From Nostoc sp. PCC 7120 = FACHB-418 (GTDB lineage: Bacteria > Cyanobacteriota > Cyanobacteriia > Cyanobacteriales > Nostocaceae), in the NCBI RefSeq assembly GCF_000009705.1, contig NC_003272.1, positions 4,530,001-4,562,000 on the forward strand: a stretch of DNA of 32,000 nt, written 5' to 3'. The position numbers were made by a program, and so were the translations under genes. Under the pieces are notes generated by a model, which searched no databases, was not told the DNA's origin, and worked only from the letters and a program-made list of their open reading frames with translations. The first letter of the stretch is position 1. Each line of letters starts with the position of its first letter. This document shows positions 1,940 through 23,523 of the stretch, in pieces.

Positions 1940-3241
1940 ATGAAAATTAGCGCCTACTATAACTTTGTATATCGATACAAGTATGCTAAACACTTTTCGC
2001 CAGGACTAAAGATTCAGCTTATTTTATTTTGGAGTTTGGGTATTTGGGCGTTATTAACAGCGAATTCACAAGCTGCTCCAATACACAGAAATTGGGATAA
2101 GCCCTCAAAATCGCTAGAAAATATCACTTCTAATAATCCTGGAGATGATGTTAATTTACTCTTTATCCAGAACAATCAACGCCAACTCAATATACTTTTA
2201 AATCAATTAAATAAAAAACATATCTTAATTGCTGCCCCGGAAAACTTCAATCCTGGATTACGATTACCTCCAGCTATACCAATACCACCCACAAGACAGC
2301 CTAACCTGATTCCACCCGCAAAACCCACCGAATCGGTTAAGCCAGTGACAGTATTAGAAGGTATTCAAACAGACTTTCGTAATGATACTAATAATTTTGG
2401 TCAAAGTAACTTACTTGTTGAACCAATAATTCAATTTAAATTGCCTAATGGGAATAAAATATTTTTCAAAACAGGGTTAGAATTTTTTGAGCAACGGGAT
2501 ATGAAATCGGTCACTAACATTCCTGTGGAAATTGGTTGGCAAGGAAAATTAGATGAAATAACTCTACAAACAACAGTAGGAGTTGATGTTTTTAATCGGT
2601 TACCTACAGTTATCAATTTCAATGCTCAGATGGAAGCTCCTATTATACCACTACAAGTTTCTTCTTCAGGTCAATTAGTATCGGGTTTAATCATATCAGC
2701 TAACTTAGAACAAGGCCCTTATAAATCTAATGTTCAAACCTTAGAAAATCAAATTACAGCTTGGCGGTTTGGGCCTAATTTATATTGGCAAATTGATCGT
2801 GACACTAGTTTATTCTCATCGCTGCGTTTGGGTAATTACAGCGATCGCAATTTTGAAGTTCAGTCTTTTAGCCGGCTAGAACGCAAGTTTGGACAATTTT
2901 CTTTGGCGGCTAACTTATTCAATTGGAGTTACAGTCGCAATCTGGAAAGCACTAGCGGCTATTTTTCTCCCCCAGATTTTCTCGCATACAACGCTGAAGT
3001 TGCTTGGCAGGGGGATATTGCTAATTTCTTGCAGTGTCGGCTGTCGGCTAACTTGGGACAACAGCGCATTAATGGAAAAACTGATAACGCCAACACTTAT
3101 CAAAGTCTTTGTACAGTCAAGTTATCGCCAAAAATAGAGGCCGATATAGGCTATGGCTTCAGCAATGTGCGAAATCAAGATACAGATGGAAGTGATTATA
3201 GTGGTGGTTCTTTAACGGGACAGTTAAGGATGAGATTTTAG
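1940..3241 (+). CDS. Predicted outer-membrane beta-barrel protein (possible polysaccharide export porin)
   Basis: 433 aa. An N-terminal hydrophobic segment ends ...LLTANSQA/AP, resembling a signal peptidase I site. A Pro-rich linker follows (PPAIPIPPTRQPNLIPPAKP). The remaining ~290 aa have alternating polar/hydrophobic strand-like segments, and the C-terminus ...GQLRMRF ends in Phe, a typical OMP beta-signal. No family was recognised. It lies upstream of and co-directional with the GT2 cluster. Confidence 0.6.
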   Translation: MKISAYYNFVYRYKYAKHFSPGLKIQLILFWSLGIWALLTANSQAAPIHRNWDKPSKSLENITSNNPGDDVNLLFIQNNQRQLNILLNQLNKKHILIAAPENFNPGLRLPPAIPIPPTRQPNLIPPAKPTESVKPVTVLEGIQTDFRNDTNNFGQSNLLVEPIIQFKLPNGNKIFFKTGLEFFEQRDMKSVTNIPVEIGWQGKLDEITLQTTVGVDVFNRLPTVINFNAQMEAPIIPLQVSSSGQLVSGLIISANLEQGPYKSNVQTLENQITAWRFGPNLYWQIDRDTSLFSSLRLGNYSDRNFEVQSFSRLERKFGQFSLAANLFNWSYSRNLESTSGYFSPPDFLAYNAEVAWQGDIANFLQCRLSANLGQQRINGKTDNANTYQSLCTVKLSPKIEADIGYGFSNVRNQDTDGSDYSGGSLTGQLRMRF

Positions 3242-3320
3242 ATGTTAGTTAAATTTGGGAGTTGGGAAAGATAACTTTGTTGAAGCTTTGAGTAAATTAC
3301 ACAATAGGGTTTGATACAGC

Positions 3321-4808
3321 ATGAGTTCCGACTTTCAACCCCCACCTCCAGGCTTATCTATACTAGTCGCTGTTGGAGGGGTGGTTACCGCAGTGATAGC
3401 GATCGCTGGGTTAAATTCTTTGTCTAGTCGTTTGGCTCAAAATACCTCAATATCTGCAATATCAACACCTCAAACTATCTCTCCTACAGCTAATGTGGAA
3501 ACACAAGCACAAAAGGTAGCAAAACTTGATGCTAAATCTGTAGTTATACCAGGAACCTCTGTTCCTGCTAGTGAATTAACTAAAACTAAAACACCTTACA
3601 TCGGGGTGAAAATTGGCAAACTGGATGCAGCAGATATGGCTAACGCTCGGATAGCTTGGTCATATTTTCAACACAACTGGAACGATGAAACCGGCTTAGT
3701 TAATTCCGCCGATGGCTTTAGTTCTGTAACTATGTGGGATCAGGCGGCGGCGATCGCTGCTTTGGTGAGTGCTAGAGAACTTAATCTCATTCCAGTGGCA
3801 GAATTTGAGGCGAAGATGAGTAAAACGTTGCAGACTCTAGCAACCCTACCTTTATATAAAGGTGAGCTACCCAACAAAGTCTACAACGCCAAAACTCTCC
3901 TTCCTGTTAATTATGGAAAATTAGATCAACGAGAAGAAATTGGCTGGTCAGCTATTGATTTAGGACGAATGGCAATTTGGCTAAAGATCGTCGAAGCCAA
4001 GTATCCCCAAATGCGATCGCCTGTGCAAGCTGTTTGGAAGCATTGGCAAGTTAAGCGCCTCACCAAAAACGGGCAAATGTACGGCACTAGCGTTGTTCAA
4101 GGTCAAGAACAATATCACCAAGAAGGGCGCTTAGGCTATGAAAGCTACGCCGCCTACGGTTTGCAACTATGGGGGTTAGATGTCAAGCAAGCCTTAGATT
4201 ATCGGTCGCAAACCGCTTTTGTCAATCTCTACGGACAAGGTGTTCCTTACGATCGCCGCGACGCTACCAACTCAGGCGGAAATAACTACGTCCTCAGCGA
4301 ACCCTATATTCTGGATGGCATAGAAACTGGGTTTAAGGCTTTGCCTAAAGCTTATGCTGATAGAGTTTTAGCTGCTCAAGCCGCCCGTTATCAAGCAACA
4401 CAAGAGTTAACCGCTTTGACAGAAGACAATGTAGACCGTCTGCCTTACTTTGTTTACAACAGCTTGTTTGTGAACGGCAAAGCTTGGGCAACAATTACAG
4501 ATACTGGACAACAGTACAACGATTTACGCTTTCTCAGTGCCAAAGCAGCGATCGGCTGGCATATACTTTACAACACTGATTACACAAGCACTTTATCTCA
4601 CACTGTCTTCCAGCAACTGAAATCTGAGAAAGGCTGGTACAACGGATTGTACGAATCTTTACGTCAGCCAAATAAAGCCCTCACAGCTAACAATAACGGC
4701 GTAATTTTAGAAAGTTTTCTGTATAAGCAAGTTGGCAAACCCCTCACTGTTTGGGCAGGAGTTAAGGTTCAAAGCGGAGGTGTTGGAGCGATCGCACCTG
4801 AGCAATAG
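3321..4808 (+). CDS. Membrane-anchored periplasmic protein with one DUF3131-like domain (putative glycan-active six-hairpin fold)
   Basis: 495 aa. An N-terminal TM anchor (LSILVAVGGVVTAVIAIAGL) is followed by a ~400-aa domain. That domain shares conserved blocks with both halves of the next ORF: TMWD, LPNKVYN, GWSAIDLGR, EGRLGYESYA, NNYVLSEPYILDGIE, LTALTEDNVD, NKALTANNNG. The DUF3131 (PF11329) label is from memory and was not checked. Confidence 0.7.
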   Translation: MSSDFQPPPPGLSILVAVGGVVTAVIAIAGLNSLSSRLAQNTSISAISTPQTISPTANVETQAQKVAKLDAKSVVIPGTSVPASELTKTKTPYIGVKIGKLDAADMANARIAWSYFQHNWNDETGLVNSADGFSSVTMWDQAAAIAALVSARELNLIPVAEFEAKMSKTLQTLATLPLYKGELPNKVYNAKTLLPVNYGKLDQREEIGWSAIDLGRMAIWLKIVEAKYPQMRSPVQAVWKHWQVKRLTKNGQMYGTSVVQGQEQYHQEGRLGYESYAAYGLQLWGLDVKQALDYRSQTAFVNLYGQGVPYDRRDATNSGGNNYVLSEPYILDGIETGFKALPKAYADRVLAAQAARYQATQELTALTEDNVDRLPYFVYNSLFVNGKAWATITDTGQQYNDLRFLSAKAAIGWHILYNTDYTSTLSHTVFQQLKSEKGWYNGLYESLRQPNKALTANNNGVILESFLYKQVGKPLTVWAGVKVQSGGVGAIAPEQ

Positions 4809-5049
4809 TTTCAAAGTCACGATCACTGTGAACTAAAAGTAAATAAAGCATTCTACCCAGAATATATCAGTATATTAACTTGTATTTTGTACCTAAGTAC
4901 AAGAGATTCAGTGTATTCCTCGCTGATATAGCAAAGATTTCCGCCTAATATCTAAATTCATGAGTCCCCGACTTCATGTTATTCGCTAATGCGATTCAAT
5001 TCATTTCTACCGCAGTGCTATCAATGTACTGATTTTTAACTCTCCGTAT

Positions 5050-7869
5050 ATGCTATACAAGCAACGCCAACAAAAGCTGTGGAAATGGATGGCATTGTTC
5101 CTAGTTGGGACATTGTTGCAGTTTTTGTTTTATGTTCCAGTACGCACCTTGGCAGAGAGTTCTAATGTTGCTGCTAATTCCGCCAGTTGTAGCAGTATTA
5201 CATCTCCTCTCAGCCCTGAGGAACAAACTTATGCTCGTGCGGCTTGGCAATATTTTGTCAAAAACTATCAGCCAGCAACAGGATTTACTAATTCTACAGG
5301 GGGTTATCCTTCCGGTACGCTGTGGGATATGGGGAACTACTTAATGGCGTTGAATGCGGCGCGGTGGTTGAATCTCACCGATCAAGCAGACTTTGACGCT
5401 CGCCTGAATAAGTTTTTGACTGGTCTGGGAAATCTGAAGTTGTTTGAGGATGCTTTACCTAATAAAGTCTACAACGCAGCCACCGGACAGATGGTAGATT
5501 ACACTAATACTCCCATCGAACGGGGTATTGGCTGGTCGGCTTTAGATGTCGGTCGGATATTGGCGGCCTTTGATGTGATTCGCACTTGTCACCCTCAATA
5601 TAATGATTGGCTCAAAGGGATTGTCACTAAGTGGCAAGTAGGGCGATCGCTTAAAGATGAACAACTGTTTGGCGCAACAGTCCTCCCGGATAACACCACA
5701 TTACTGGTACAAGAAGGACGACTCGGCTATGAAGAATACGCCGTTAGGGGTTATCAACTTTGGGGTTTTGCCGCACCAAAAGCTCTGGCATTAGAACCAT
5801 ATAAAATGGTGGAAATTAATGGTGTACAGATTCCTGTTGATACCCGTGATTTCCAAAGCACCAATGCCAATAATTATGTTGTGAGTGAGTCTTATATTCT
5901 TGAGGGTATCGAATTTGGTTTTCAGGGAGAGTTAGGCGATTTTGCTGCTAGGGTTTTGGAGGTGCAGAAGCGGCGCTATGATGCGACAGGTCAGTTAACT
6001 GCGGTGACGGAAGACAACATCGACCAAGAACCTTATTTTCTTTACAACACTGTTTACGCCAACGGTAAAAACTGGGCAACTATCACCGATACAAATCAAC
6101 CTTACCCTCAGTTTCGTAGTGTTAGTAGCAAAGCGGCTTTTGGTTGGCGCTATCTTTTCCCAGATAATGCTTATGCACAAAAGATTTTTGATGCGGTAAA
6201 GGATCTCCGCAGTCCCGATGGCGGTGGTTTTTACGCTGGTATTTATGAGGAATCGAAACAGCCGAATAAAGCTTTAACTGGCAATACCAATGGGCTAATT
6301 TTGGAGATTTTATACTACAAAGCCAGAGGGAATCGTCCTTTAATTGGTTCGAGTGCTGTTAGTCAACCAAGCAAACCAACAAACAACAATACTTCCTCTG
6401 CTGCGACTCCCCCACCAAGAGAGACTCCCAAGGTGGCGCAAACATCTACAACCCCAACAAATTCTACCCCTCCCGCACCAGGAAATACTCCTCAGGTTGG
6501 GGAAGTGACGATCGCACCCATTCCCCCAGTGGGTAATCCAGACCCATCCTCTACCCTGAAACTCGCTCGACCCCTAACGGTAGTGGAACGACGCTATGCA
6601 GAAGCAGCATGGAGGTATTTTCAAGCCAATTATCATGCTCGTAGTGGGTTAATCGACGATCGCAGTGATTTTCAGGGTGCTACTCTTTGGGGATTGGGAG
6701 ATTATTTAGCTGCGCTTCATGCGGTGCGATCGCTGGAGATTATTTCCCCGAAGGAATTTGACCAGCGTACCCGCCATTTATTAGCGGCCTTAGCTCAACT
6801 ACCCTTATTTGCGGGAGAATTACCGAATCGAGGCTATGATACGCGAGTTCTCCAACCAATTGATTATGGTGGGAATCCTGTTCCCCAAGGTAACGGCTGG
6901 TCAGCTTTAGATGTTGGTAGGCTACTAGCAGCGCTGTATAACTTAAAAAGCTGTCACCCAGAATATACTCAAGCAGTTGATCAAATTGTTTTAGATTGGT
7001 CATACTTGCGGGTGGTGCGGGATGGAGTTCTTTCCAGCGCCACAGTTACCCCAGGTAAGGAAGGACGATATCTTACCCGCGTTAATCTAGAAACCCGCTT
7101 GGGTTATGAAGAATACGCTGCTCGTGGTTTTCAACTATGGGGATTTGAGGTAGAGGGTTCGGCTGTTGGTGGTGAATATCAAACTACCCTGGTGGAAGGG
7201 GTAAAGGTTCCTACCCAACGCCACCGCACAGATACTAACTCCAAAGTTAACCAATATACAGTCAGTAATCCTTTCTTACTTTACGCCCTGGAATTTGGTT
7301 TAGATCCCCAAATGCGATCGCTCTTTGAGTCCATTTTCCAAGCACAGGCAGAGCGTTATCGCCGCACCGATACCCTCACAGCCTCAGCTACCACTCTCAT
7401 AGACCGCAAGCCTTACACCGTCCACAGCACGATTACTGGTAAGGGTGAACCTTGGCAAACCTTAGGAGATGACGGAAAAACTGTACCTCAAGGGCGAATG
7501 GTAAGTACAGCAGTAGGTTTTGCTTATCATGCACTCCTACCAGAAAATCAATATAGTCAAAAGTTATTTGCAGGAACCACAGACTTATATAACCCACTAG
7601 CAGGGTTTTATGAGGGCTTTTATGAAACCACAGGTAAAACAGCCGTTGGTTTCACCAGCAGCACCAACAGCATGATTTTACAATCTTTACTGTACAAGGT
7701 CACGAATCGCCAACCCTTAATTCGTCCATCAAGCGCCATGCAATCACCTTGGTGGCAAGCTGTGGCTCAAGGGGACTCCGGCCGAGGCTTACCGAGAATT
7801 GCTAAATCAAAAGTCAGATTAATTTCTGATAGTTATGGCAGTTATTGGATGTCTGGTGCTTCCCAGTGA
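5050..7869 (+). CDS. Secreted or anchored protein with two tandem DUF3131-like domains joined by a Pro/Thr-rich linker
   Basis: 939 aa. There is an N-terminal hydrophobic signal or anchor (WKWMALFLVGTLLQFLFYVPVRTLA). Domain A spans roughly aa 55-435 and domain B roughly aa 505-900. Both align block by block with the 495-aa protein. The linker is SQPSKPTNNNTSSAATPPPRETPKVAQTSTTPTNSTPPAPGNTPQ... Confidence 0.75.
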   Translation: MLYKQRQQKLWKWMALFLVGTLLQFLFYVPVRTLAESSNVAANSASCSSITSPLSPEEQTYARAAWQYFVKNYQPATGFTNSTGGYPSGTLWDMGNYLMALNAARWLNLTDQADFDARLNKFLTGLGNLKLFEDALPNKVYNAATGQMVDYTNTPIERGIGWSALDVGRILAAFDVIRTCHPQYNDWLKGIVTKWQVGRSLKDEQLFGATVLPDNTTLLVQEGRLGYEEYAVRGYQLWGFAAPKALALEPYKMVEINGVQIPVDTRDFQSTNANNYVVSESYILEGIEFGFQGELGDFAARVLEVQKRRYDATGQLTAVTEDNIDQEPYFLYNTVYANGKNWATITDTNQPYPQFRSVSSKAAFGWRYLFPDNAYAQKIFDAVKDLRSPDGGGFYAGIYEESKQPNKALTGNTNGLILEILYYKARGNRPLIGSSAVSQPSKPTNNNTSSAATPPPRETPKVAQTSTTPTNSTPPAPGNTPQVGEVTIAPIPPVGNPDPSSTLKLARPLTVVERRYAEAAWRYFQANYHARSGLIDDRSDFQGATLWGLGDYLAALHAVRSLEIISPKEFDQRTRHLLAALAQLPLFAGELPNRGYDTRVLQPIDYGGNPVPQGNGWSALDVGRLLAALYNLKSCHPEYTQAVDQIVLDWSYLRVVRDGVLSSATVTPGKEGRYLTRVNLETRLGYEEYAARGFQLWGFEVEGSAVGGEYQTTLVEGVKVPTQRHRTDTNSKVNQYTVSNPFLLYALEFGLDPQMRSLFESIFQAQAERYRRTDTLTASATTLIDRKPYTVHSTITGKGEPWQTLGDDGKTVPQGRMVSTAVGFAYHALLPENQYSQKLFAGTTDLYNPLAGFYEGFYETTGKTAVGFTSSTNSMILQSLLYKVTNRQPLIRPSSAMQSPWWQAVAQGDSGRGLPRIAKSKVRLISDSYGSYWMSGASQ

Positions 7870-7924
7870 TGTAACAGGACTTGGGAGTCCTGTCTCCGAC
7901 AAGAATTTTATTACCAGTGTCAAA

Positions 7925-9916
7925 ATGACTTCTATTAATCATGATCCAACTTTTTCTGGCAATAGTCGCTCCACCCTCAAAAAAAGAACACTTTTATTTC
8001 GTTACCTCGCAGAAATCAATTTAATTTTTGGTCTGTGGTATTTACAATGGCGCATTACCAACTCCATCAATTTTGATGCGTTATGGCTCTCGATTCCGTT
8101 GTTGCTGGCGGAAATTTATAGCTACCTTGGCGGAGTGATGTTTGTCATTGGCTTGTGGCGACCTTTAGTCCGACAGATTAAGTCACTTGACCAGTTGACT
8201 CCATCTCTACCGCAAACAGATTGGCCAATTGTAGATGTCTTTATCACCTGTTACAACGAACCGCCGGAGATGGTCGAACAAACGGCCCAAGCAGCTTTAG
8301 CCATAGATTATCCACCAACTAAGCTGTATGTTTATGTTTTGGATGATGGTAACTCCCCTGCTATGCGAGCCATGACGGAAAAGTTATGTATTGCAGATTT
8401 ACAGTCACCACTACTACAGCAAGAAGCCAACCGCATTGATGCAGAACGCTCACACTTGGTAGAACGTCTGCAAAAGTTAGAAAGTTTCACCTCTAATATT
8501 CAAGTGGCTGAAGAATGGTTGTCAAAATCGTCATCAGTTCCCAACCAGGACAAAACCACAGATGAAGTTTTAGCGCAGAGTTTGCAACAGTTTATTCGTT
8601 GGTTATCTCCCAAACATCACAGTATTGCTGAACGCCTCAAAACTGAACGCCAAGTTTTAGCAGGCGCTATTCGCCAAAAAGAACTGGAATTGGTCGAACT
8701 CACTAGATTTCGTTATATTGCTCGTCCCAAACCTGCGGGTGTACCCCACCATGCGAAAGCAGGAAACCTCAATTACGCAATTTTTTCTGGTGAAACTTCG
8801 GGAGAATTTATTCTCACTTTAGATGCTGATCATATTCCCAAACCCCAATTTCTCAAGCGGGTTTTGCCATATTTCTACACATATAATCTGTTTAATGGCA
8901 AGTATGAGCAAAACCGCATTGCTTTTGTACAGACACCTCAGGACTTTTATAATATTCCTCCCAGTGATCCCTTTGGGCATCGAGCCAGTTTATTTTATGG
9001 GCCACTACAACAGGGTAAAGATGGGATGAATGCGGCCTTTTATACAGGTACTAACGCTATTTTGCGACGTGAGGCCTTAATTAATGTGGGACTACAATAT
9101 TTTGCCGATGATTTTACCAAAGATGAAAAACGATTAGATGAATTTCAATTGGTTGGTGGTCTATCTAGCAACAGTATTACAGAAGATATGAATACCGCTA
9201 TGCGTTTGCATGGTGCTGGTTGGAAATCAGTTTATCATCATGAACTTTTGGCAGAAGGTTTAGCACCTGATGACCTCAGTTCTACTTTAAAACAAAGACT
9301 ACGTTGGGCGCAGGGAACAATCCAAGTACTAGTTAAAGAAAACCCACTGAGGAAATCAGGACTCACGTTTTGGCAACGTCTGCAATATTTTAAGACGATG
9401 TATAGTTATTTTTCCGGTTTTGCTACGCTTATTTTTATTTCTTGTCCAATTATTTATTTTTTTACAGAAATTGTTCCTGTAAAAACATACGGTACTGATT
9501 TCATTCTACACTTTTTACCCACCTTTATAATCAATCGTCTAACGTTTGTTGTAGCAATATGGGGTATTCCAGCTAGTGAAATCTGGCGTTCTGAACAATA
9601 TGCGATCGCTTTATTTCCCATATTTATTCAAGCTGTTTGGAGTGTATTCACTGGACAGAAGATGAACTTTCAAGTTACCCCTAAAGAACGGCAATCAGGT
9701 ATTTATCTGAGCATGATTTGGCCACAATTATTAATCTTCTTTTTAACTATTATAGGCATATTTTGGAGTCTTTATAGCTTTGCGATTGGTCGTCTCAATC
9801 ATCCTTGGGTAAACCTGCTCAATAGTTCCTGGGCTGTCTATAACTTGCTACTCTTATCAGGTATCATTCGTGCATCTGTTTGGCAAATGCCAAAATATGA
9901 TTCAAAGAAAGTGTAA
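7925..9916 (+). CDS. Processive family-2 glycosyltransferase, cellulose-synthase-like (CesA/BcsA type), no PilZ domain
   Basis: The conserved motifs appear in canonical order: VFITCYNEP, VLDDGN, HAKAGNLN, TLDADH, QTPQ, ITEDMNTA and QRLRWAQG (QxxRW). Two TM helices precede the catalytic domain and several follow it. I prefer the ATG at 7925 (MTSINHDP...) because the ORF-track start at 7835 would overlap the upstream gene by 35 nt. The start is uncertain. Confidence 0.85.
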   Translation: MTSINHDPTFSGNSRSTLKKRTLLFRYLAEINLIFGLWYLQWRITNSINFDALWLSIPLLLAEIYSYLGGVMFVIGLWRPLVRQIKSLDQLTPSLPQTDWPIVDVFITCYNEPPEMVEQTAQAALAIDYPPTKLYVYVLDDGNSPAMRAMTEKLCIADLQSPLLQQEANRIDAERSHLVERLQKLESFTSNIQVAEEWLSKSSSVPNQDKTTDEVLAQSLQQFIRWLSPKHHSIAERLKTERQVLAGAIRQKELELVELTRFRYIARPKPAGVPHHAKAGNLNYAIFSGETSGEFILTLDADHIPKPQFLKRVLPYFYTYNLFNGKYEQNRIAFVQTPQDFYNIPPSDPFGHRASLFYGPLQQGKDGMNAAFYTGTNAILRREALINVGLQYFADDFTKDEKRLDEFQLVGGLSSNSITEDMNTAMRLHGAGWKSVYHHELLAEGLAPDDLSSTLKQRLRWAQGTIQVLVKENPLRKSGLTFWQRLQYFKTMYSYFSGFATLIFISCPIIYFFTEIVPVKTYGTDFILHFLPTFIINRLTFVVAIWGIPASEIWRSEQYAIALFPIFIQAVWSVFTGQKMNFQVTPKERQSGIYLSMIWPQLLIFFLTIIGIFWSLYSFAIGRLNHPWVNLLNSSWAVYNLLLLSGIIRASVWQMPKYDSKKV

Positions 9917-10250
9917 ATATTATTTATTGGTCGTTATTTTACAAACAAAATTGATGTCCGGCAGGGGATATTATCCACAAAAATACTTAATCTCATCCAA
10001 TAATTAAATTTTATTTGTATGAAAAAATACTGATTCGAGAAATTCTATAGTCAAGGCAATGCTGATAAAAATTCATATAGATAACGTTAAATTTGTTCAA
10101 CAATTATAATTTTAATATTTTTGTTAAAGTTTCCTTTTGTCTGCTTAACTACCTTGCCGTTTCAATATAATAATGCCAGAATGTATAAAACAATAATTAA
10201 ATAGCAAACCGATAGTAATCTAACAATTTATTTAAAGAAAAAAACAGCTT

Positions 10251-10589
10251 ATGAATACAAACTTTCAAGTCATAGAAGTATCGGGTATTTTAGATGGAAT
10301 TAGGGGTAATCAACTACGTCGTGAAATTAGCGAATTGATTGCTGATGGTAACAATATTGTGTTGCTGGACATGAATTCAGTGACTTTTATGGATAGTTCT
10401 GGCTTAGGCTCTTTAGTATCGGCAATGCAAATGCTACGTTCTGTTAATTCCCAACTTTTTATCTGCTCTATGAATGACCAAGTTAAGATGTTGTTTGAAT
10501 TAACTAAAATGAATAGGATTTTTCAAACCTTTATCGATCAAGATGACTTTAAACGGCAAGTACTGACAGCCACAAGGGTTATTTCCTAA
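10251..10589 (+). CDS. STAS-domain anti-sigma-factor antagonist (SpoIIAA/RsbV-like)
   Basis: 112 aa. The typical STAS layout is present, with the conserved phosphorylatable serine motif FMDSSGLGSL (Ser50 in DSSG). Confidence 0.85.
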   Translation: MNTNFQVIEVSGILDGIRGNQLRREISELIADGNNIVLLDMNSVTFMDSSGLGSLVSAMQMLRSVNSQLFICSMNDQVKMLFELTKMNRIFQTFIDQDDFKRQVLTATRVIS

Positions 10590-10613
10590 TTAAAAAGAAT
10601 CAATATAACTCTA

Positions 10614-11804
10614 TTAACCCAAAGTAATTTTTAATAATGACAAATCATCTTCAATTATTTGTTGAATATTTAATGTCATTATTTGCATTAATATGTAATG
10701 AATATTACAGGGTTCTGCCTGGCTAGATTTAATTAGTATTTCAATAAAAGCATCGAGTCCTAAAATCTTGCCATCTGGCTCTCTAATTTCATAAATGCCA
10801 TCACTAAATATGTACAGAGTACTGTCTTTTTTTACTTCCCAGGCAGCATCTTCAAACTGCACATCAGGTAAAAATCCTATGGGTAAATCTAAAGAATTGA
10901 GTTGTTTAACTTGAAAACCAGTTTCAGATGTACCAGATAAAATTACAGCCGGGGGATGTCCGGCGCTAGCATAGACGAGTTGATGTTGAATACAGTGATA
11001 AACTCCATACCAAATTGTGAAGTATTTATCACCGTGGTTTGTCATCTGGAAAGCATGATTTAGTGCCTTGAGAACTTCTCTAGGCTTGTAGAAATTAGTA
11101 TTAGGTAAAGATTGCGATCGCAGAATATTCAAGATAGAGACAGATAATAGGGCAGAACCTATTCCATGTCCTGATACATCCAATAGATAAATTGCTAAAT
11201 GCTCGTCATCCAGCCAGTAATAATCGAAGCAATCACCCCCCAACTGGGTTGAAGGAATAAATAAGGCTTCTGTATTTACTCTTCCTTCTAGAGGTTTAGG
11301 TAGAAGCGATCGCACATAATCAGCAGCCTCGGCTAAGTCTGCTTCTAAAGTTTGCTTTTGGGTTTGTAAATCATGGTTGAGTATTTCTAAAGTTTGCTTT
11401 TGGGTTTGTAAATCCTGATTGAGCTGATGTAACCTGAGTCCGGCTCTTACCCGCGCTTTTAATTCAATCATTTCGATTGGTTTAGAGATAAACTCATCAG
11501 CTCCAGCATCCAGTCCTTTAACTCTGTCTTTCTCTTCTCCTGGCGCTGCTCCCTTAGCCGTTAACAAAATAAAAAAACTAGTTGCTAACTCTGGATTTGC
11601 TTTAATTTGACGACATACTTCCAATCCATCTAACGGAGACATTACCCAATCACAGATAATCAATGCGGGACGGAGCAGTTCTGCTTGAATAATTCCTTCC
11701 TTCCCATTGTTGACAACAGTAGTTTCATAACCCTGATTCTCAAGAGTTCTTTTTAGCACCGTCCGTACAACCGGATCATCATCAATAACTAAAATTTTTA
11801 CCAT
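10614..11804 (-). CDS. Response-regulator receiver fused to a PP2C/SpoIIE-type serine phosphatase (RsbY/RsbU-like)
   Basis: 396 aa. The N-terminal REC domain shows KILVIDDDP...LIICDWVMSPLDG...LTAKG...KP. A coiled-coil linker follows, then PP2C/SpoIIE motifs: LGGDCFDYYW, LLDVSGHGIGSALLS and IFSDGIYE. Confidence 0.85.
   Translation of the reverse strand: MVKILVIDDDPVVRTVLKRTLENQGYETTVVNNGKEGIIQAELLRPALIICDWVMSPLDGLEVCRQIKANPELATSFFILLTAKGAAPGEEKDRVKGLDAGADEFISKPIEMIELKARVRAGLRLHQLNQDLQTQKQTLEILNHDLQTQKQTLEADLAEAADYVRSLLPKPLEGRVNTEALFIPSTQLGGDCFDYYWLDDEHLAIYLLDVSGHGIGSALLSVSILNILRSQSLPNTNFYKPREVLKALNHAFQMTNHGDKYFTIWYGVYHCIQHQLVYASAGHPPAVILSGTSETGFQVKQLNSLDLPIGFLPDVQFEDAAWEVKKDSTLYIFSDGIYEIREPDGKILGLDAFIEILIKSSQAEPCNIHYILMQIMTLNIQQIIEDDLSLLKITLG
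11343..11426. repeat. 42-bp direct tandem duplication inside the REC-PP2C linker
   Basis: Unit 1 (11343-11384) is ttctaaagtttgcttttgggtttgtaaatcatggttgagtat. Unit 2 (11385-11426) is ttctaaagtttgcttttgggtttgtaaatcctgattgagctg. The first 30 nt are identical. The duplication is in frame and encodes LNQDLQTQKQTLEI / LNHDLQTQKQTLEA. Confidence 0.9.
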
Positions 11805-11953
11805 AAGTGATGGGCTAATAAATATAATCTCAATTGAGTATTGTATTTATTTCAAATTAACTATAATCGAGTTGATAATGTACAGTGAAAATACTCAAAT
11901 TAAATAAAATGATCATTGTGTATGCTTGATTCAAGTCTATTCTTATCTAAGAA

Positions 11954-12370
11954 GTGAATAATAAAATTTATTTAAAATTAAATACGGACTTAGCAGCCTC
12001 GACTGAGGTGTTGTCATGGTTCGAGCAGATAAATCGACCAGTTATTTCTCATCAGCAAATCTGGTGGCAATGTCAAACATTACTAATGGAGGGATTTGCT
12101 AATATTGTTGAACATTCACACAAACATTTACCAATAGAAACACCTATTGAGATAGAAGTTTCACGAACACAGGATTATATAGAAATACGTATATGGTCGC
12201 AAGGTGAACCCTTTGACTTAGAACAGCGATTAAAAAAAACAACTGAACTGGAAGAAAATATTCAAGAGCGCGGTCGCGGCTTAAGAATTATGGAAGCGAT
12301 CGCCGATGATTTAAGTTATGAAAAACTAGCAGATAATCGCCACTGTTTATTTATTCGTAAATACTATTAA
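11954..12370 (+). CDS. RsbW/SpoIIAB-like anti-sigma factor serine kinase (HATPase_c only)
   Basis: 138 aa with a GTG start. It has an N-box-like [11 protein letters not shown] and a G2-like [16 protein letters not shown]. The G1 position reads SQGEPFD, which is degenerate relative to DxGxG. It is divergent from the PP2C gene and lies 37 bp upstream of the hybrid kinase. Confidence 0.75.
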
Positions 12371-12407
12371 ACCTATTTATTATCACACCCTCATCTGTAA
12401 TTTAAAG

Positions 12408-15400
12408 ATGAAAGCACAATTGCCTGATAACGAAGTGCAGAGAATTGCAGCACTTTTAGAGTATAAAATTCTTGATACTCCACCCGAAGCAGCATTTGAT
12501 GATATCACCCGTTTAGCATCATATATTTGTGGAACTCCGATTGCTTTAATCAGCTTAATTGACCAAAATCGTCAATGGTTTAAGGCAACATTTGGGCTGG
12601 AGAGGCGAGAAACACCGCGAGATGAGGCATTTTGCGCTCATACTATTTTAGAATCTGAAGCCTTTATCGTACCTGATGCCACAGCCGACGAACGCTTTGC
12701 TACAAATCCATTAGTCATATCTGATCCCAAAATTCGATTTTATGCGGGTGTACCTCTCACTAACCCTGAAGGCTATTCCTTGGGAACACTTTGTGTTATT
12801 GATTACATACCCAGGAACTTAAGTTTTGAACAGATTGAGGCGCTACAAATTCTAGGTCGCCAAGTCATAAAGCAATTGGAACTGCGGCGTAACTTAGCGA
12901 ATTTAGTACTGGTAAATAATCAACACAAACAAGCACAAAAAATCCGCCATCCATTTTTTAAAAAAATTGCTGGTGGCTTTGGATTGGCATCAGTCTTTTT
13001 AGTCTTACTTGGCTTGGCTTCCTATCAGGCTGAAATCGAATTAATTCATAATGGCAATCAAGTCCAAACAACCCAAGAAAGCATTAATAACTTAGAACAA
13101 CTGCTGTCTCAAATGAAGGATGCAGAAACTGGACAACGTGGTTACATTTTGACAGGAAAAGACCCTTATCTGCAAACTTATCAAACAGCGCTAGCAAACA
13201 TTGATCAGAAGTTTGATGAACTGAGAAATGCCACAGTTGATCCAGTCCGCCAACAGCGTCTTGTCATACTCAAACCTCTGATTACCGCAAAAATTACTGA
13301 ACTGAATCAAACTATCAAACTACGACAGAATCTAGGCTTCCAGGCAGCATTACAGGTCATCCAATCCGATCAAGGGCAAACTCTCATGGATGACATCCGC
13401 AAAGTGATGCGTGAAATGGAGACAGAGAACAAGGTGCGCCTTCAACAGCAATTACAAGCGGTAAAAGCCAGTGAGCAAAAAGTTATTTTCATCTTGGCGA
13501 TCGCTATCGTCTCAGGTTTTATCATTCTCGCTGTTGTTTACTACCTAATTTATTGTGAAGTTATTGCCCGCCAGTCGATGGAAAATATACTCAACGAAGA
13601 GCGTAATTTTATTTCGGCAGTACTGGATACAGTCAGCGCCTTGGTCATCGTCCTAGATTCCCAAGGGCGAATTGTTCGCTTTAATCAAGCTTGTGAGGTG
13701 ATAACTGGTTACTCATTCGATGAGGTCAGGGGTAGGCATTTTTGGAATCTGTTTTTGCTTCCTGAAGACGTAGAGTCAAGCAAAGAATTTTTTGCCAAGT
13801 TCCCAGCAGATCCAACAGTACCCAGTGTTCAGGAGTCTGAAAACTATTGGGTAACTAAAGATGGTAGTCGGCGCTTAATTGCATGGTCGAGAACTATCCT
13901 GCAAAACCATGAGGGTTCGGTAGAATACATTATTGGTACAGGCATTGATATTACTGAGCGCAAACGTGCAGACAAGCATTTGACAATACAATATGCCATC
14001 ACTCGTGTCTTGGCAGAATCTACAACGATTACCGAAGCTACGCCCCAAATTTTGCAAGCCATTTGTGAAACCTTGGGATGGAATGTCTGTGAAATTTGGA
14101 TGGTAAATCAGCAAGCAAATTTCTTGAGTTTTTTCGACCTGTGGCATCACACATCTTTGGAAATGCAGGAGTTTAGAACCCAAAGTCAGCCAATCACATT
14201 TGCATCGGGGATTGGATTGCCAGGACGGATTTGGGCTAGTGGTCAACCCATTTGGCTGACCGATATCGTCAATGATGGCAGCTTTCTGAGAAACCAATTA
14301 GCAGCGCAAGTAGGATTGCGTGGTGCTTTTGGTTTTCCGATTCGGAGTGGGCAAAAAATTCTGGGAGTCATTACCTGCTTTAGTCATCAAGTTCAGCCGC
14401 ATGACCCAGATTTGGCAAAAATCATGGATTCTATTGGCGAACAAGTAGGGCAGTTTATCCATCGTAAACAGGCAGAGGAGGAACTGCAACGGCAAAACCT
14501 GCGATCGCAATTATTCACAGAAATCACTCTCAAAATTCGCCAATCTTTGCAAATTGAAGAAATCTTACAAATCACTGTCAAAGAAGTACAAAAGATTCTC
14601 CAGACTGATCGAGTTTTAATTTATCAGTTACTGCCTGATGGTTCTGGAAGTCTGATCATTGAGGCAGTCGTGGCTGGTTGGGCAGCAATTAAAGGACAAA
14701 ATATTACTGATTTTTATTTGCAAACAGAATATCAACAGCAGTATTGTCTACAACAGTATCGCCTCAGGCATCTGGAGGCGATCGCTAACCTAGATTTGGG
14801 AGAGATTCAACAAAGCCATCTAGAATTACTCAGAAAGTTTGGGGTTAAAGCTAATTTAGTTATACCTATTCTTGTCAAAGATGAACTCTGTGGCTTACTA
14901 ATTGTCCATCAGTGCGCCACCTCCCGCCAATGGACAAGTTTTGAGACCCATCTTTTACGACAAATAGCAGACCAAGTAGGTATCGCTGTAGCCCAAGCCC
15001 AACTCTTAGAAGTAGAAACTCGACAGCGACAGGAACTAGAAGTTGCCCGTAGTCAGGCTGAATTAGCTTCTCATGCTAAAAGCGCTTTTTTGGCGAATAT
15101 GAGTCATGAAATCCGCACACCCATGAATGCTGTATTGGGGATGACTGGCTTAATGCTAGAAACTCTTCTCAACCAAGAGCAGCGAGATTTTATGGAAACT
15201 ATTCGCATTAGTGGCGATGCACTTTTAACTCTCATTAACGAGATATTGGATCTCTCCAAACTGGAGGCTGGGGAAATGGCTTTAGAAAATTTGAATTTTA
15301 ATTTATCAACCTGTGTGGAAGAAGTTTTAGATTTATTAGCCCCCCAAGCTCATAGTAAGGGATTAGAAATTGCTGCTTTAATCTATCGCCACGTTCCTAT

Positions 15401-17060
15401 CCAACTCCAAGGAGATGCTAGCCGTCTGCGACAAATTCTCATGAACCTGATTGGCAACGCTATCAAGTTCACTAGTTTTGGGGAAGTAGTCATGCGAGTA
15501 GAATTGCGATCGGAAACTCCTACTACAGCTATTATCCACTTTGCCGTTACAGATAGTGGCTTGGGCATTACTTTAGAAGACCAACACAAACTGTTTACCC
15601 CTTTTACTCAAGTAGATGCTTCCACCACGCGTAAGTATGGTGGTACTGGTTTGGGATTAGCAATATGCAAACAATTAGTGACATTAATGGGAGGAGAAAT
15701 TGGTGTAGAAAGTCAGTTAGGCAAAGGTTCTAAATTTTGGTTTGAAATTCCTTTCGCCAAACAACTCCAGCCTGTTTCTTTTGTAGAAGATTGCGGACTA
15801 TTAAACAATCGCCGTTTACTGGTGGTGGATGACCACGCCACTAATCGAAAAATTATTTATCACCAAGTTAGTCGATGGGGAATGCAGGTAGATCAAGCTG
15901 ATAGAGCTGTTGCGGCTCTAAGTATGATTGTGGAAGCTTGTCAGCAGAATAAGCCCTACGATGTCATCTTAATCGATATGCAGATGCCTGAAATGGATGG
16001 GATGGCTTTGGGAAAACAAATTAAGGCCAATTCTGCTATTCCTCCAACACCCTTAATTATGCTCACTTCTACTAATCAACGTGACGAAGTGCAACAGGCA
16101 ATTAAGATTGGATTTGCTGCTTATTTGGTCAAACCTGTAAAATCATCTCGGTTGCTCGACACTATAATGAGTGTTTTAAAAACTCCGTCACAATTGGAAG
16201 CAGAGAAGTTGGAAGTAAAGAGTCAAGAGTTAGAAAAGAACAATTTAGATCACAGCCGCAACCATAATTTTACTGCTACCCAGGCTCAGAATTCTGTTTC
16301 AACAAAAACTAGAATCCTACTGGCTGAGGATAACTTAGTTAACCAAAAAGTGGCTCTTAAACAACTCCAAAGCCTTGGTTATACAGCTGATGTTGCTGCT
16401 AACGGCAAAGAGGTTTTACAACTATTAAAACAAATTCCCTACGATTTGATTTTAATGGATTGTCAAATGCCAATTCTTGATGGTTTGGAAGCCACAAAAG
16501 AAATTCATCGTTGGGCAGAAAGCTCCTTTGCTAGCTGTCGTCGTCCTGTGATTATTGCGATGACAGCTAATGCCATGAAAGAAGACAAACAAATGTGTCT
16601 AGATGCCGGCATGGATGATTATTTGAGCAAGCCTGTGATGAAAGAACAATTGGCGACAGCATTAGAATATTGGTGCCAGTTAATACTAAATTCACGACAG
16701 GCAGTAGAGTTTGATCTAAATAGTCTTCCTCTTGACTGGGAACACTTACATCAACTTTCCGAAAACGATACAGAATTTGAATTACATTTGTTGCAAATAT
16801 TCGTTGAGGATGTCCGAGCTAGATTAGAGTTAGCTAAAGAGGCGATCGCTAACACTGACTTTCAACAGATGGCTCAACAAGTCCATCAGCTGAAAGGCGC
16901 TAGTACCAATATCGGCGCTACAGCTATGTATCTAGCTGCTGAAAAGCTAGAACAGCTAGCTCAAAACCAAGAGCGTAGAGGCAGCATGGAGTTAATTACA
17001 GAAATAGAAGAGGGTGTCAACCAGATTCAAGCCTTTCTAACTAGAAGCCAAATTGTTTGA
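12408..17060 (+). CDS. Multi-sensor hybrid histidine kinase: GAF - TM - CHASE3 - TM - PAS - GAF - GAF - HisKA - HATPase - REC - REC - Hpt
   Basis: 1550 aa.
- N-terminal GAF-like domain: [25 protein letters not shown]....
- TM1: [20 protein letters not shown].
- CHASE3-like region: [25 protein letters not shown].
- TM2: [24 protein letters not shown].
- PAS: [20 protein letters not shown]....
- Two GAF domains.
- H-box [12 protein letters not shown], with His900 at nt 15105-15107.
- HATPase N and G boxes.
- REC aspartates at D1190 (nt 15975) and D1351 (nt 16458).
- Hpt motif [12 protein letters not shown], with H1493 at nt 16884. Confidence 0.9.
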
Positions 17061-17176: not shown

Positions 17177-17207
17177 CAAAAAAAAGGTTTGGCTCACCAC
17201 CAAACCT
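17177..17207 (-). terminator. Rho-independent terminator oriented on the minus strand
   Basis: On the plus strand, AGGTTTGG (17185-17192) and CCAAACCT (17200-17207) are separated by a 7-nt loop and preceded by an A8 run (17178-17185). On the minus strand this reads as an 8-bp GC-containing hairpin followed by U8. Confidence 0.7.
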
Positions 17208-17376
17208 CTCTATAAATCCAGTGCATAACAACATCCCGAAATAATGTACCTGTTATTTTGAGGCGATCGCATCTTCCTATAGGATGTAGCTAAGGGTCAA
17301 AAAACCTGATTTTAGCCAAAACTAGTATTAATAATTACATTTAAGGCAATTTAATCCGTTTTTTCCATTGATTGCC

Positions 17377-17402
17377 AAAAAAAAGACGGGTTTTACCCCG
17401 TC
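17377..17402 (-). terminator. Rho-independent terminator oriented on the minus strand
   Basis: On the plus strand, an A8 run (17377-17384) precedes GACGGG (17385-17390), a 6-nt loop and CCCGTC (17397-17402). On the minus strand this reads as a hairpin followed by U8. Confidence 0.7.
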
Positions 17403-17800
17403 GAAGTAGCTTGAAAGTGGCAATACACCTTGGACTCTGGAAAATAGGAAAAATAAAATTTAATAGATTGAAAGGAATATCAATGATGTGAACAACAAGA
17501 ACGTTGATCTATGCCGTACTTGGACTGTTAATCATTTCTATCCTCACAATTCCCATCAAGTTATCATAGGCAATTTTGCATCAGTTGCCAAAATGCCAAA
17601 ACTGACAAAATGAATCAATTCAAAGTACCCTACGGGAAGCAAGCTACAAAATTCAAAATAAAAAAATGCTGTTTCTGAGTATTTTAAAACAACATTCAAA
17701 AATAGTAGTACTATTTATTACATTTAAAGCTTGAGGATTTACCGTTACTACACCTGTAATCAATCAAGCCAATAACTAATACTGCTAGAGAAAATCCAAC

Positions 17801-20133: not shown

Positions 20134-21243
20134 TCAAATATTTTTAGGCAGTTTGACTGTGAATTTACTACCTTTACCTACTTCAGAAACCAAGCTAATC
20201 ATACCTTCGTGGGCTTCAACAATACGACTGGACAAATGCAGACCTAAACCACTACCTGAACGTTTATTCCTTCCCTGTCGAAAGCGCTCAAAAATGGTTA
20301 CTTGGTCTTCGGGAGCAATACCATAACCAGTATCTTCAATTTCAATTGTTAACCAATGATTATTGGGTTCAAAAAAGCGAATTTCAATGCCGCCAGTATC
20401 TGTAAACTTGATGGCATTTGCTACTAAGTTGTACAACACGCGGCGTAGTTCGAGGGTATCGCCCATGACTATACCTGCTTTTTCTCCTAAGTTATCTATC
20501 TGACTGCTATCTATTTTTAAGGCGATACCTTTTTCATTAGTTAGAGTTGTGAGTTCGCTAACCACTTCTTGAGCGATTTCTTTTAAGTTACAGCTTTCAT
20601 AATTTAATGTTTTCTTACCGGCTTCAAAGCGATAAACTTCTAGTAAGGTATTAACCATCTGCATCAAATTTTGATTGCTGCGAATCATGACAGCGATCGC
20701 CTGTTTCATTTCTGGCGAAATTTTGCAAAAAGCTTCTTGTTGAAACAAGTCCAACATCCGATCGGCTGCTACTAGCGGTGTGCGTAAATCGTGGGTCAGG
20801 CGTGACACAAAGTCTTCCCTTTGGCGTGCCATTTTCTTTTGTTCGTCCAGACTGTGCTTGAGGCGTAGGAGCGATCGCACTCTAGCCAATAGTTCATCTG
20901 TATCAAATGGTTTGCGAATGAAATCATCCGCGCCTACGTCCAAACCTTCCACAACACTCGATTCGTGAAAAGCTGTAATCAACAATATTGGTATATAACT
21001 GAGGGCTGGGTTATTGCGAATGCGTCGCGTCACTTCATAACCATCCATCCCCGGCATCATTACATCTAATAAGATTAAATCTGGTGGAGACTGTTCTACT
21101 TTTTGCAAAGCTGAAATGCCATCACTGGCTAAATCAATTTCATAGCCTTCACTTTCTAAAATTGTTTGCACTAAAATCAGATTATCTCTAGTGTCGTCAA
21201 CAGCCAAAATTCGATCAATTTGATGATTTTCCACAACAGACAT
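20134..21243 (-). CDS. Hybrid REC-HisKA-HATPase histidine kinase (N-terminal receiver)
   Basis: 369 aa. REC motifs are ILAVDDTRDN...LILLDVMMPGMDG...KP. The H-box is LTHDLRTPL. HATPase motifs are NLVANAIKFT, DTGYGI and GSGLGLHL. Confidence 0.9.
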   Translation of the reverse strand: MSVVENHQIDRILAVDDTRDNLILVQTILESEGYEIDLASDGISALQKVEQSPPDLILLDVMMPGMDGYEVTRRIRNNPALSYIPILLITAFHESSVVEGLDVGADDFIRKPFDTDELLARVRSLLRLKHSLDEQKKMARQREDFVSRLTHDLRTPLVAADRMLDLFQQEAFCKISPEMKQAIAVMIRSNQNLMQMVNTLLEVYRFEAGKKTLNYESCNLKEIAQEVVSELTTLTNEKGIALKIDSSQIDNLGEKAGIVMGDTLELRRVLYNLVANAIKFTDTGGIEIRFFEPNNHWLTIEIEDTGYGIAPEDQVTIFERFRQGRNKRSGSGLGLHLSSRIVEAHEGMISLVSEVGKGSKFTVKLPKNI

Positions 21244-21272
21244 GATAATAAATTTGTTTTATATATATAAAT

Positions 21273-22604: not shown

Positions 22605-22854
22605 CGGTTTTTATATTTGCTGCCAAATACAGGTTGATTTCAAACATTTCTCGGTTCAACTTGTTCAACTAAAAATTAGAGCCTCTTGAATATAGTCTTG
22701 GTTAATTCTTATATTTGATTTGAGCAAGGCTGATTCTCAATATCAAAGATAAAAATTAGTGTTTCTCATTTTGTTTAGATCAATTTAATAGGGCATAATT
22801 CATGTTACTGAAAAATACGATAGTCTCGGCTCACAAAATCTGTTGTTACACAGA

Positions 22855-23286: not shown

Positions 23287-23523
23287 TTTTTGTATTTAAA
23301 CTATGCTTTTTATGGGAGGCTAGCTAATTCGTGAATAGTTATTCATGAATTAGTAATGAGTACTATAAAAATGCTGAGTGCTTGTGCAGACTAAGCTTTT
23401 ACTAAGTAAAATACAATACTTGAGTGAAGCTTCAACCCAATTGTAAAAGAGCGACTGAACGCACGTCCTCACCCATTAGTGAGAGTTGGAGAAAATCATT
23501 GTGTACCATAAGCTTGAGCTATT

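Follow-up and report, generated by a model that had tools for sequence, protein, structure and literature searches.

The window analyzed here is a 32,000-nucleotide stretch of Anabaena (Nostoc) sp. PCC 7120 (NC_003272.1, positions 4,530,001 to 4,562,000), and all coordinates below are positions in it. Our subject is the gene cluster around alr3757, which encodes a processive family 2 glycosyltransferase (GT2). The original prediction for this DNA covered four genes, which are alr3754 to alr3757, and called them a compact, uncharacterized synthase-dependent exopolysaccharide system. They are followed by alr3758, all3759, alr3760, and alr3761. The features are as follows.

1940..3241, forward strand: alr3754-type outer-membrane protein, 433 aa; signal-like N-terminus, Pro-rich linker, predicted C-terminal beta-barrel with terminal Phe
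3321..4808, forward strand: alr3755-type membrane-anchored DUF3131 protein, 495 aa; one N-terminal transmembrane helix, a linker of ~80 aa, one DUF3131 domain
5050..7869, forward strand: alr3756-type secreted tandem DUF3131 protein, 939 aa; two domains with a Pro/Thr/Ser-rich linker between them
7925..9916, forward strand: alr3757, processive BcsA/CesA-like GT2 without PilZ, 663 aa; reading frame open from 7835
9805..9819, forward strand: HetR-binding site published for alr3758, within the 3' end of alr3757; exact 15-mer match
10251..10589, forward strand: alr3758, single-domain STAS protein of the anti-sigma-antagonist type; Pfam STAS E 1e-19, FMDSSGLG motif
10614..11804, reverse strand: all3759-type response regulator with C-terminal PP2C/SpoIIE phosphatase; Pfam Response_reg and SpoIIE (E 1.7e-41)
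11954..12370, forward strand: alr3760, stand-alone RsbW/SpoIIAB-like serine kinase (HATPase_c_2); Pfam PF13581 E 1.3e-19
12408..17060, forward strand: alr3761, hybrid histidine kinase; Pfam CHASE3, PAS, three GAF, HisKA, HATPase, two REC, and Hpt

As predicted, the first four genes are co-directional. With the GT2 ATG set at 7925, the open reading frame (ORF) calls give intergenic gaps of 79, 241, and 55 nucleotides, and this start is supported because orthologues align from its residue 1. The alr3755 product has one hydrophobic N-terminal anchor (residues 11-29) and is 95% identical to a protein of Trichormus variabilis ATCC 29413. That of alr3756 has a signal-like segment (residues 13-31), and that of alr3754 a signal-like N-terminus and a C-terminal end of ...LRMRF. 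We found no PilZ, BcsB, or HlyD family in the 29 window ORFs scanned. The sole tetratricopeptide repeat (TPR) protein of the window is encoded at 30512-31891 on the minus strand, ~20 kb from the cluster. These scans agree with the earlier statement that the cluster lacks BcsB, PilZ, and a TPR scaffold.

We located every motif of the predicted D, DxD, TED, and QxxRW set in alr3757 (DDG 140, DAD 300, TED 419, QRLRW 457), together with FQVTPK at 582. The plant model of Pfam Cellulose_synt matched at E 1.7e-39, and the best PDB matches were BcsA (E 3.6e-50) and plant CesA (E 2e-34); the call of a processive BcsA/CesA-like GT2 is borne out by the Pfam match and by BcsA as the top structure. The protein ends ~10 residues past its last transmembrane region and has no PilZ domain. 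Between DDG and DxD lies a helical "PCR-like" insert of ~110 aa (nucleotides 8357-8719). When searched alone (residues 145-265), the insert had no PDB match at E<=10, the plant-conserved region (P-CR) of plant CesA included.

The synthase itself has long been known. It is NP_487797.1, a PilZ-less "CesA with PCR domain" whose insertion lies between the first two catalytic motifs, and it has been discussed since 2001 and was reviewed in 2025 (PMC12430437). [quoted passage not shown] Thus, the label "uncharacterized" fails for the synthase and stands for its partners, which are undescribed in the literature searched.

We then compared the outer-membrane protein with known exporters. The alr3754 product scored just under the Pfam cut-off for BCSC_C (E 7e-5; 22.6 bits, cut-off 23.5), and all 20 of the homologues scanned match BCSC_C at E<=0.01. 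The sole PDB match of its family profile was the BcsC barrel 6tzk; this match is weak (E 1.1), with a GY(F/Y)SP motif in common. Foldseek with the alr3754 model returned outer-membrane barrels only, all generic and none reaching E 1e-3. The family is small (147 clusters at 50% identity in an exhaustive profile search). Several of its longer members carry N-terminal TPR arrays ahead of the same barrel, and a TPR array joined to a barrel is the classic architecture of a synthase-dependent exporter. In alr3754 there is no TPR, and residues 47-135 form a Pro-rich linker. Alignment of the alr3754 profile by hhalign with a Pantoea 299-aa hypothetical protein and with a Paracoccus TPR-barrel protein was not significant. 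The predicted 433-aa outer-membrane barrel is supported by the BCSC_C matches of the homologues and by the relatives with TPR array and barrel. With moderate confidence, we place alr3754 in a BcsC/PgaA-like exporter family as a member without TPRs, and we presume that it is the outer-membrane exit pore.

The two proteins encoded between pore and synthase carry the domains that the original prediction named DUF3131. PF11329 (DUF3131) matches once in the 495-aa protein (E 1e-156) and twice in the 939-aa protein (1073 bits). The three domains have E values of 4.5e-157, 2.1e-170, and 6e-155, each spans the 367-position profile above the gathering score, and their pairwise identity is 32-44%. These full-length matches confirm both the family and the three paralogous copies. 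At E<=10, Pfam placed no second family on the domains. We searched a low-confidence AlphaFold2 model of alr3755 with Foldseek. The top 16 matches were GH144, GH192-194, and GH189, that is, the β-1,2-glucanase clan, followed by BcsZ (GH8). The clan matches have E values of 8e-6 to 1e-3, TM scores of 0.43-0.56, a probability of 1.00, and 10-15% identity. They comprise GH144 structures (4gl3, 5gzh, 3eu8, 4qt9, 5z06), GH192-194 structures (8xuj, 8xuk, 8xul), and the GH189 cyclization domain of cyclic glucan synthase (8wy1, 8rf0). The best PDB match of the DUF3131 profile was again the GH189 domain 8wy1, at a weak E of 0.027, and a PDB sequence search with the DUF3131 protein gave noise besides this match. 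Insofar as the model is right, these matches support the guess that the fold is (α/α)6 and glycan active.

A table of Brucella virulence genes lists BMEI1837 as "DUF3131 domain-containing protein" (PMC6382750). Our full-text literature search for DUF3131 returned nothing about cyanobacteria. We take BMEI1837 to be cgs, the cyclic β-1,2-glucan synthase; if this is right, Pfam DUF3131 overlaps the GH189 cyclization domain. The paper on clan GH-S makes no mention of DUF3131 and gives, as the clan-defining residues in XcSGL, the general acid E239 together with Y367 and F286 (PMC12102758).

To compare the copies with one another, we aligned twelve DUF3131 domains from Anabaena, Waterburya, Pantoea, and Paracoccus. 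A canonical class has the fixed acidic motifs WD, QEGRLGYE, SE(P/S)Y, and TE(D/H)xxD. All of these are present in alr3755 (WD, QEGRLGYE, SEPY, TEDNVD), and the first domain of alr3756 is canonical as well. The second domain of alr3756 is degenerate (TEDN to ATTL, SEP to SNP, WD to WG), and its Waterburya orthologue shows the same acidic losses. In each of the four aligned systems, two or more domains are canonical and one or more are degenerate. Read from the alignment, this pattern suggests active enzymes beside a binding-only paralogue. It bears on a different account, in which all three DUF3131 domains form a noncatalytic glycan-binding scaffold that bridges the thick cyanobacterial periplasm from synthase to pore. 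Such a scaffold would suit a cluster without BcsB and without a TPR protein, the three to four DUF3131 copies per system with their long Pro/Thr/Ser linkers, the tethering of one copy to the membrane, as BcsB is tethered, and the retention of the acid-depleted paralogue since the divergence of Nostocales and Pleurocapsales. However, the acidic motifs kept in two or more domains per aligned system, from cyanobacteria to Proteobacteria, look like an active-site pattern, and the closest folds are enzymes. We consider a purely structural role for all three domains somewhat unlikely.

To see how the genes travel together, we took 80 cyanobacterial loci from a genome scan with the 495-aa protein and searched all window proteins against them by tblastn. 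The tandem DUF3131 gene was found in 36 loci, the GT2 gene in 31, and the outer-membrane protein gene in 23; this last gene adjoins a DUF3131 gene in 23 of the 80. Among the 31 GT2 loci, 28 have the tandem DUF3131 gene. The regulators follow the same linkage: a STAS gene lies directly 3' of the GT2 gene with a REC-PP2C gene beside it in 24 of the 31, an RsbW-like kinase is present in 20, and a hybrid histidine kinase is present in 8 (relatives of this last gene occur in 11 of the 80 loci, some on the opposite strand relative to the window). The other seven GT2 loci consist of four that end at the locus edge, one with regulators upstream, and two that are unexplained. In the Nodosilinea cluster a PP2C gene is present, and a STAS gene follows the GT2 gene in Nodosilinea and Geminocystis. 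The order outer-membrane protein, single-domain DUF3131 protein, tandem DUF3131 protein, (extra DUF3131), GT2 is found from Nostocaceae to Microcoleus, Microseira, Waterburya, Coleofasciculaceae, and Phormidiaceae. The four-gene synteny is common, probably ancestral, and not universal.

Many cyanobacteria have a fourth DUF3131 domain, which Anabaena PCC 7120 lacks. It is encoded by a gene of ~1.1 kb directly upstream of the GT2 gene in loci L013, L030, L035, L051, L052, L060, L066, L074, and L078. Alternatively, it is fused into a three-domain protein of ~1390 aa (L070, 11552-15742; L083, 5763-9935).

The same gene set occurs in Proteobacteria in a different order. Plasmid pDSJ10 of Pantoea stewartii carries an RsbW-like kinase, a REC-PP2C protein, a "cellulose synthase catalytic subunit," three DUF3131 genes, and an Hpt hybrid kinase. 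On a Paracoccus plasmid we found OpgC, a HAMP-PP2C protein, a GT2, three DUF3131 genes, an outer-membrane protein with TPR and a PgaA barrel, a kinase, a STAS protein, and two GH16 genes, and a Vibrio replicon has PP2C, STAS, GT2, and three DUF3131 domains. The set is present on Pantoea, Salmonella, and Vibrio plasmids. In Klebsiella pneumoniae, an accessory genomic block (3b) that is reported to carry the same gene set, a hybrid kinase with Hpt, and OpgC is associated with an ecological gradient (PMC12974863). That the DUF3131 genes and the GT2 gene are neighbors by chance is contradicted by this cross-phylum co-occurrence in differing gene orders. We found no BcsB in the window or in the annotated or gene-called clusters examined. 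Some proteobacterial clusters have extra genes, namely, OpgC and the two GH16 genes in Paracoccus (L082, 4174-7295 and 20032-20868) and a globin and a GH2 gene in Pantoea (L081, 16801-17235 and 19901-22096). Such genes hint that the glucan is modified or turned over and that gas or redox state is sensed.

As for the polymer, the 2025 review puts the synthase of Synechococcus PCC 7002 into the alr3757 class (PMC12430437), and the study of that strain notes that further ces genes had not been identified (PMC4851311). In its cesA mutant, a cellulase-sensitive envelope layer labeled by a cellulose-binding domain is lost; the product lies between the peptidoglycan and the outer membrane, and the layer is also seen outside the outer membrane (PMC4851311). 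The mutant shows slow growth and minicells at low salinity only (PMC4851311). The PCC 7002 protein was not among the homologues listed in our searches. Our best guess for the polymer is β-1,4-glucan, which we regard as rather probable because the nearest matches of the GT2 are BcsA and plant CesA and because the PCC 7002 layer is cellulase sensitive and labeled by a cellulose-binding domain.

A periplasmic or modified glucan is a rival that is still live. In its explicit form, the product would be an osmoprotective glucan like the osmoregulated periplasmic glucans (OPGs), perhaps short, branched, or cyclized by DUF3131 transglycosylases, rather than a secreted cellulose-type exopolysaccharide. 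The location of the PCC 7002 product and the low-salinity defect of the cesA mutant point in this direction, as do the OpgC gene in the Paracoccus cluster, the OpgC reported in the Klebsiella cluster, and the nearest folds of DUF3131, which are those of β-1,2-glucan enzymes and include the GH189 cyclization domain. However, the GT2 is BcsA/CesA-like (QRLRW, FxVTxK, and a CesA-like FYTGT), and it reached only 21.5 and 19.2 bits against the OpgH models, whose cut-offs are 419 and 550. Many clusters also encode a BcsC- or PgaA-type outer-membrane pore, and the cellulase sensitivity, the binding of the cellulose-binding domain, and the presence of the PCC 7002 layer outside the outer membrane do not fit well with a periplasmic product (PMC4851311). 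We therefore judge an OPG-like product to be unlikely.

The original prediction had found no c-di-GMP receptor, which holds, and no regulator in its place, which does not. Nor is the system as compact as described: 10251-17060 is a conserved partner-switching module with a hybrid kinase. The STAS protein, kinase, PP2C phosphatase, and hybrid kinase appear to stand in for PilZ and c-di-GMP. In alr3758, Ser49 of the FMDSSGLG motif is invariant among five aligned proteins, that is, relative to orthologues from four other clusters. In alr3760, the N-box E/N/H and the ExGRG motif are conserved. This protein is one of five serine-kinase candidates of Anabaena and does not interact with the STAS domain of All4160 (PMC13555669); it probably has its own partner, since it does not bind that domain. 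Genes alr3760 and alr3761 are a predicted operon (PMC12267927), and alr3761 is the likely input to the REC-PP2C phosphatase all3759. In the scanned ORFs of the window and the other clusters that we examined, we found no sigma-factor gene. Farther along, 20134-26213 encodes two REC-HisKA-HATPase hybrids, a lone REC protein, a PAS histidine kinase, and a LuxR-type response regulator.

A physical link between this module and the synthase was found in other cyanobacteria. In 4 of the 80 loci a kinase match lies inside the GT2 gene itself. The fused GT2 proteins (~800 aa) contain PF13581 at residues 213-336 (Pfam E ~1e-19), between flanks that are ~70% identical to alr3757, and the Waterburya GT2 is a single 798-aa ORF with a HATPase_c_2 insert. 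The domain enters where alr3757 has the tip of its helical "PCR-like" insert. In a database search with a fused protein as the query, 106 of the best 120 homologues had the fused architecture; the lineages include Coleofasciculaceae, Lyngbya, Pleurocapsa PCC 7319, Geminocystis, Nodosilinea, Acaryochloris, Calothrix, and others. Stand-alone alr3760 is 41-48% identical to the GT2-embedded domain of four other cyanobacteria. Independent gene calls showed that fused genes are flanked by DUF3131 genes, with STAS next in two of three places and a REC-PAS-GAF-PP2C gene nearby in one; an ORF of 100 aa after the Pleurocapsa GT2 was not recognizably STAS. A stand-alone kinase is present in 16 unfused loci and in none of the fused ones.

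One joint reading of these results, which we hold tentatively and at slightly less than even odds, is that the "P-CR" insertion serves an RsbW-type kinase as its stalk or docking site, that phospho-STAS gates this GT2 family, and that DUF3131 replaces BcsB, BcsZ, and TPR. In this joint reading the kinase would be part of the synthase in most lineages and, in the Nostocaceae, a separate protein (alr3760) that has split off, and the arrangement would span the Cyanobacteria and enterobacterial, vibrio, and rhodobacterial plasmids.

We also considered how the genes are transcribed. The HetR-binding 15-mer has a single exact match in the window, at 9805-9819, with 0 expected by chance, and expression of alr3758 is heterocyst specific and HetR dependent (PMC4192349). 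The site lies inside the coding end of alr3757, and therefore the heterocyst promoter of the STAS gene overlaps the synthase ORF. Because alr3758 is HetR dependent and upregulated in heterocysts, the partner switch may be reset during differentiation. Just downstream of alr3761, on the minus strand, lie cyano_het_sRNA (17182-17237, 87.8 bits) and NsiR8 (17385-17556, 215 bits). Together with the HetR site, these RNAs give the regulatory half the look of being tied to heterocyst development. Genes alr3756 and alr3757 are predicted to form a unit, and PerR binds its promoter in vitro (PMC12267927). Joint transcription of alr3754 to alr3757 is thus unproven, and the 241-nucleotide gap probably contains a promoter. 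Scanning for promoters and terminators gave no useful information; shuffled sequence contained more promoter-like sites than the real sequence. That the four genes are a self-contained exopolysaccharide machine, next to which STAS, PP2C, and kinase form an unrelated sigma-factor switch for heterocyst gene expression, would agree with the HetR site, with the two small RNAs, and with the view of the discoverers that alr3758 acts on a heterocyst sigma factor (PMC4192349), but it is very improbable given the kinase domain inside the GT2 in most of the top homologues, STAS and PP2C after the GT2 in non-heterocystous Waterburya, Microcoleus, Nodosilinea, and Geminocystis and also in proteobacterial clusters, and the lack of a sigma-factor gene in any cluster examined.

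Taken together, we propose, with a probability of roughly 0.6, that 1940-17060 is one BcsB-less and PilZ-less β-glucan secretion system built around alr3757 and gated by partner switching rather than by c-di-GMP. Gene content, domain identities, cross-phylum co-occurrence, and the kinase fusion are observed; every biochemical step we infer. Given its family membership and the PCC 7002 mutant, alr3757 would polymerize a β-glucan from a UDP-sugar and extrude it through a membrane channel of its own. Once in the periplasm, the chain would be taken up by the DUF3131 domains, one tethered to the inner membrane in alr3755 and two in secreted alr3756. Cleavage or transglycosylation of the chain would probably be the task of the domains with intact acidic motifs, comparable to that of BcsZ in Bcs systems, and the degenerate domain would probably only bind it. 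The DUF3131 proteins would jointly replace BcsB and the TPR scaffold, and the chain would leave through the TPR-less BcsC-type barrel alr3754. On the cytosolic side, the RsbW-like module would sit on the GT loop of the synthase, embedded in most lineages and docked as Alr3760 in the Nostocaceae. Unphosphorylated Alr3758 would bind the kinase at this loop and turn the synthase on or off; the kinase would phosphorylate and release Alr3758, and the REC-PP2C protein All3759, driven by a phosphorelay from the CHASE3/PAS/GAF hybrid kinase Alr3761, would reset it.

Several observations weigh against this proposal. The synthase falls below the NCBIfam equivalog cut-offs for cellulose synthase (TIGR03030, 326.6 versus 699.1 bits; NF008558, 239.2 bits with a cut-off of 992). 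The nearest folds of DUF3131 act on β-1,2-glucans rather than on cellulose, OpgC and GH16 in proteobacterial clusters hint at a different or modified glucan, and the impairment of the PCC 7002 mutant at low salinity only is, by analogy, an OPG-like phenotype. The structural models are of low confidence because the alignments are shallow and of closely related proteins: the alr3755 model has a predicted local distance difference test (pLDDT) score of 57 and a predicted TM score of 0.64, and the alr3754 model, which is partial, has a pLDDT of 45 and ~12 antiparallel strands. No reliable residue-level alignment of DUF3131 with the GH144 and GH189 catalytic residues was obtained; HMMER aligned ~90 N-terminal residues to 8wy1. 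Linkage is also imperfect. The outer-membrane protein gene is missing from several clusters, and the 495-aa gene stands alone in 44 of the 80 loci, mostly in Nostoc, which rules out that it is always found with the cluster; evidently, the membrane-anchored DUF3131 gene was split from the cluster in Nostoc. In the one lone locus examined (L022, 4023-18388) the neighbors are unrelated, namely, a NACHT-HEAT protein, a Ser/Thr kinase, an OprB/SLH porin, and a hemerythrin-domain protein. The predicted synteny thus held in part, in that the GT2-DUF3131 linkage is kept in cyanobacteria and Proteobacteria but is not universal. On the regulatory side, the G1 box of alr3760 is degenerate, and to judge from this sequence the protein may bind STAS without phosphorylating it. 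The assignment of PCC 7002 A2118 to the fused type was inferred from amplicon size only. Finally, the experimental data on alr3754 to alr3761 are limited to alr3758 expression and PerR binding in vitro.

The alr3757 class is the bacterial group closest to plant CesA (PMC12430437; PMC4851311), and concrete partners can now be named for it: three DUF3131 domains, a putative BcsC-type barrel, and a circuit of STAS protein, kinase, PP2C phosphatase, and hybrid kinase. The recurrent insertion of a kinase in the synthase leads to a direct hypothesis of c-di-GMP-independent control. For DUF3131, the context would be that of processing glucan for a GT2 synthase; the nearest structural neighbors of its model are in the β-1,2-glucanase clan, and it would be a new glycan-active family if the docking-site reading is true. 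The module is relevant beyond cyanobacteria, given the Klebsiella pneumoniae block (PMC12974863) and the Pantoea, Salmonella, and Vibrio plasmids.

The system is a version of the synthase-dependent polysaccharide secretion theme around a known synthase, with accessory and regulatory parts that are undescribed in the literature searched. It resembles Bcs (BcsA-BcsB-BcsC-BcsZ) in its inner-membrane processive GT2 with D, DxD, TED, QxxRW, and FxVTxK motifs, in its predicted barrel, probably related to the BcsC C-terminus, and in its periplasmic proteins with a known or predicted (α/α)6 fold, which are BcsZ in Bcs and DUF3131 here. It differs from Bcs in having no PilZ, no BcsB, and no TPR array on the pore, in using three to four copies of DUF3131 instead of GH8, and in its apparent control by STAS, kinase, and PP2C rather than by c-di-GMP; its synthase also lies under the TIGR03030 cut-off.

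The Xcs system of Thermosynechococcus and S. elongatus comprises XcsA with PilZ, HlyD-like XcsB, the endoglucanase XcsC, and TolC (PMC12430437). Both systems combine a cyanobacterial GT2 of the cellulose synthase family with a periplasmic glucan-active protein (PMC12430437), a role that would fall to DUF3131 here, but the alr3757 cluster has no PilZ, HlyD adaptor, or TolC-type exit, and its accessory set is wholly different. N. punctiforme has both types, Npun_F6500 and Npun_F1469 (PMC12430437).

As in plant CesA, the GT domain of alr3757 has its insertion after the first Asp motif and before DxD, and the protein matches the plant Cellulose_synt model of Pfam. Its FYTGT can be likened to the YVGTG of plant CesA. 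However, the insert has no detectable similarity to the P-CR, and the site is that of an RsbW-like kinase in most cyanobacterial homologues. The likeness, as far as sequences go, is positional, because there is no sequence match and because an RsbW-like domain occupies this place in most homologues. Clan GH-S (GH144, GH162, GH192-194) and GH189 give the best structural matches of the DUF3131 model, but the partner of DUF3131 is a cellulose synthase-like GT2 and not a β-1,2-glucan synthase.

Of an RsbV/RsbW/RsbU switch, the cluster encodes a STAS protein with the conserved Ser, a HATPase_c_2 kinase, and a PP2C/SpoIIE phosphatase. The clusters examined contain no sigma factor as the alternative partner; instead, the kinase is fused into the GT2. 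Closer parallels are HenR/All4160/Alr3423 of Anabaena and SypA/SypE of Vibrio fischeri, which likewise combine STAS, an RsbW-like kinase, and PP2C, have a phosphatase with a REC domain (HenR and SypE, like all3759), and target a polysaccharide pathway and not a sigma factor (PMC13555669; PMC10120452). HenR/All4160/Alr3423 is a partner-switching-like module that acts directly on a heterocyst-polysaccharide glycosyltransferase (PMC13555669). The alr3760 circuit looks separate from it because Alr3760 shows no interaction with the All4160 STAS domain (PMC13555669). All4160 has its STAS domain fused to the glycosyltransferase, whereas here the kinase domain is the fused part, the STAS protein is free, and the target is a processive synthase.

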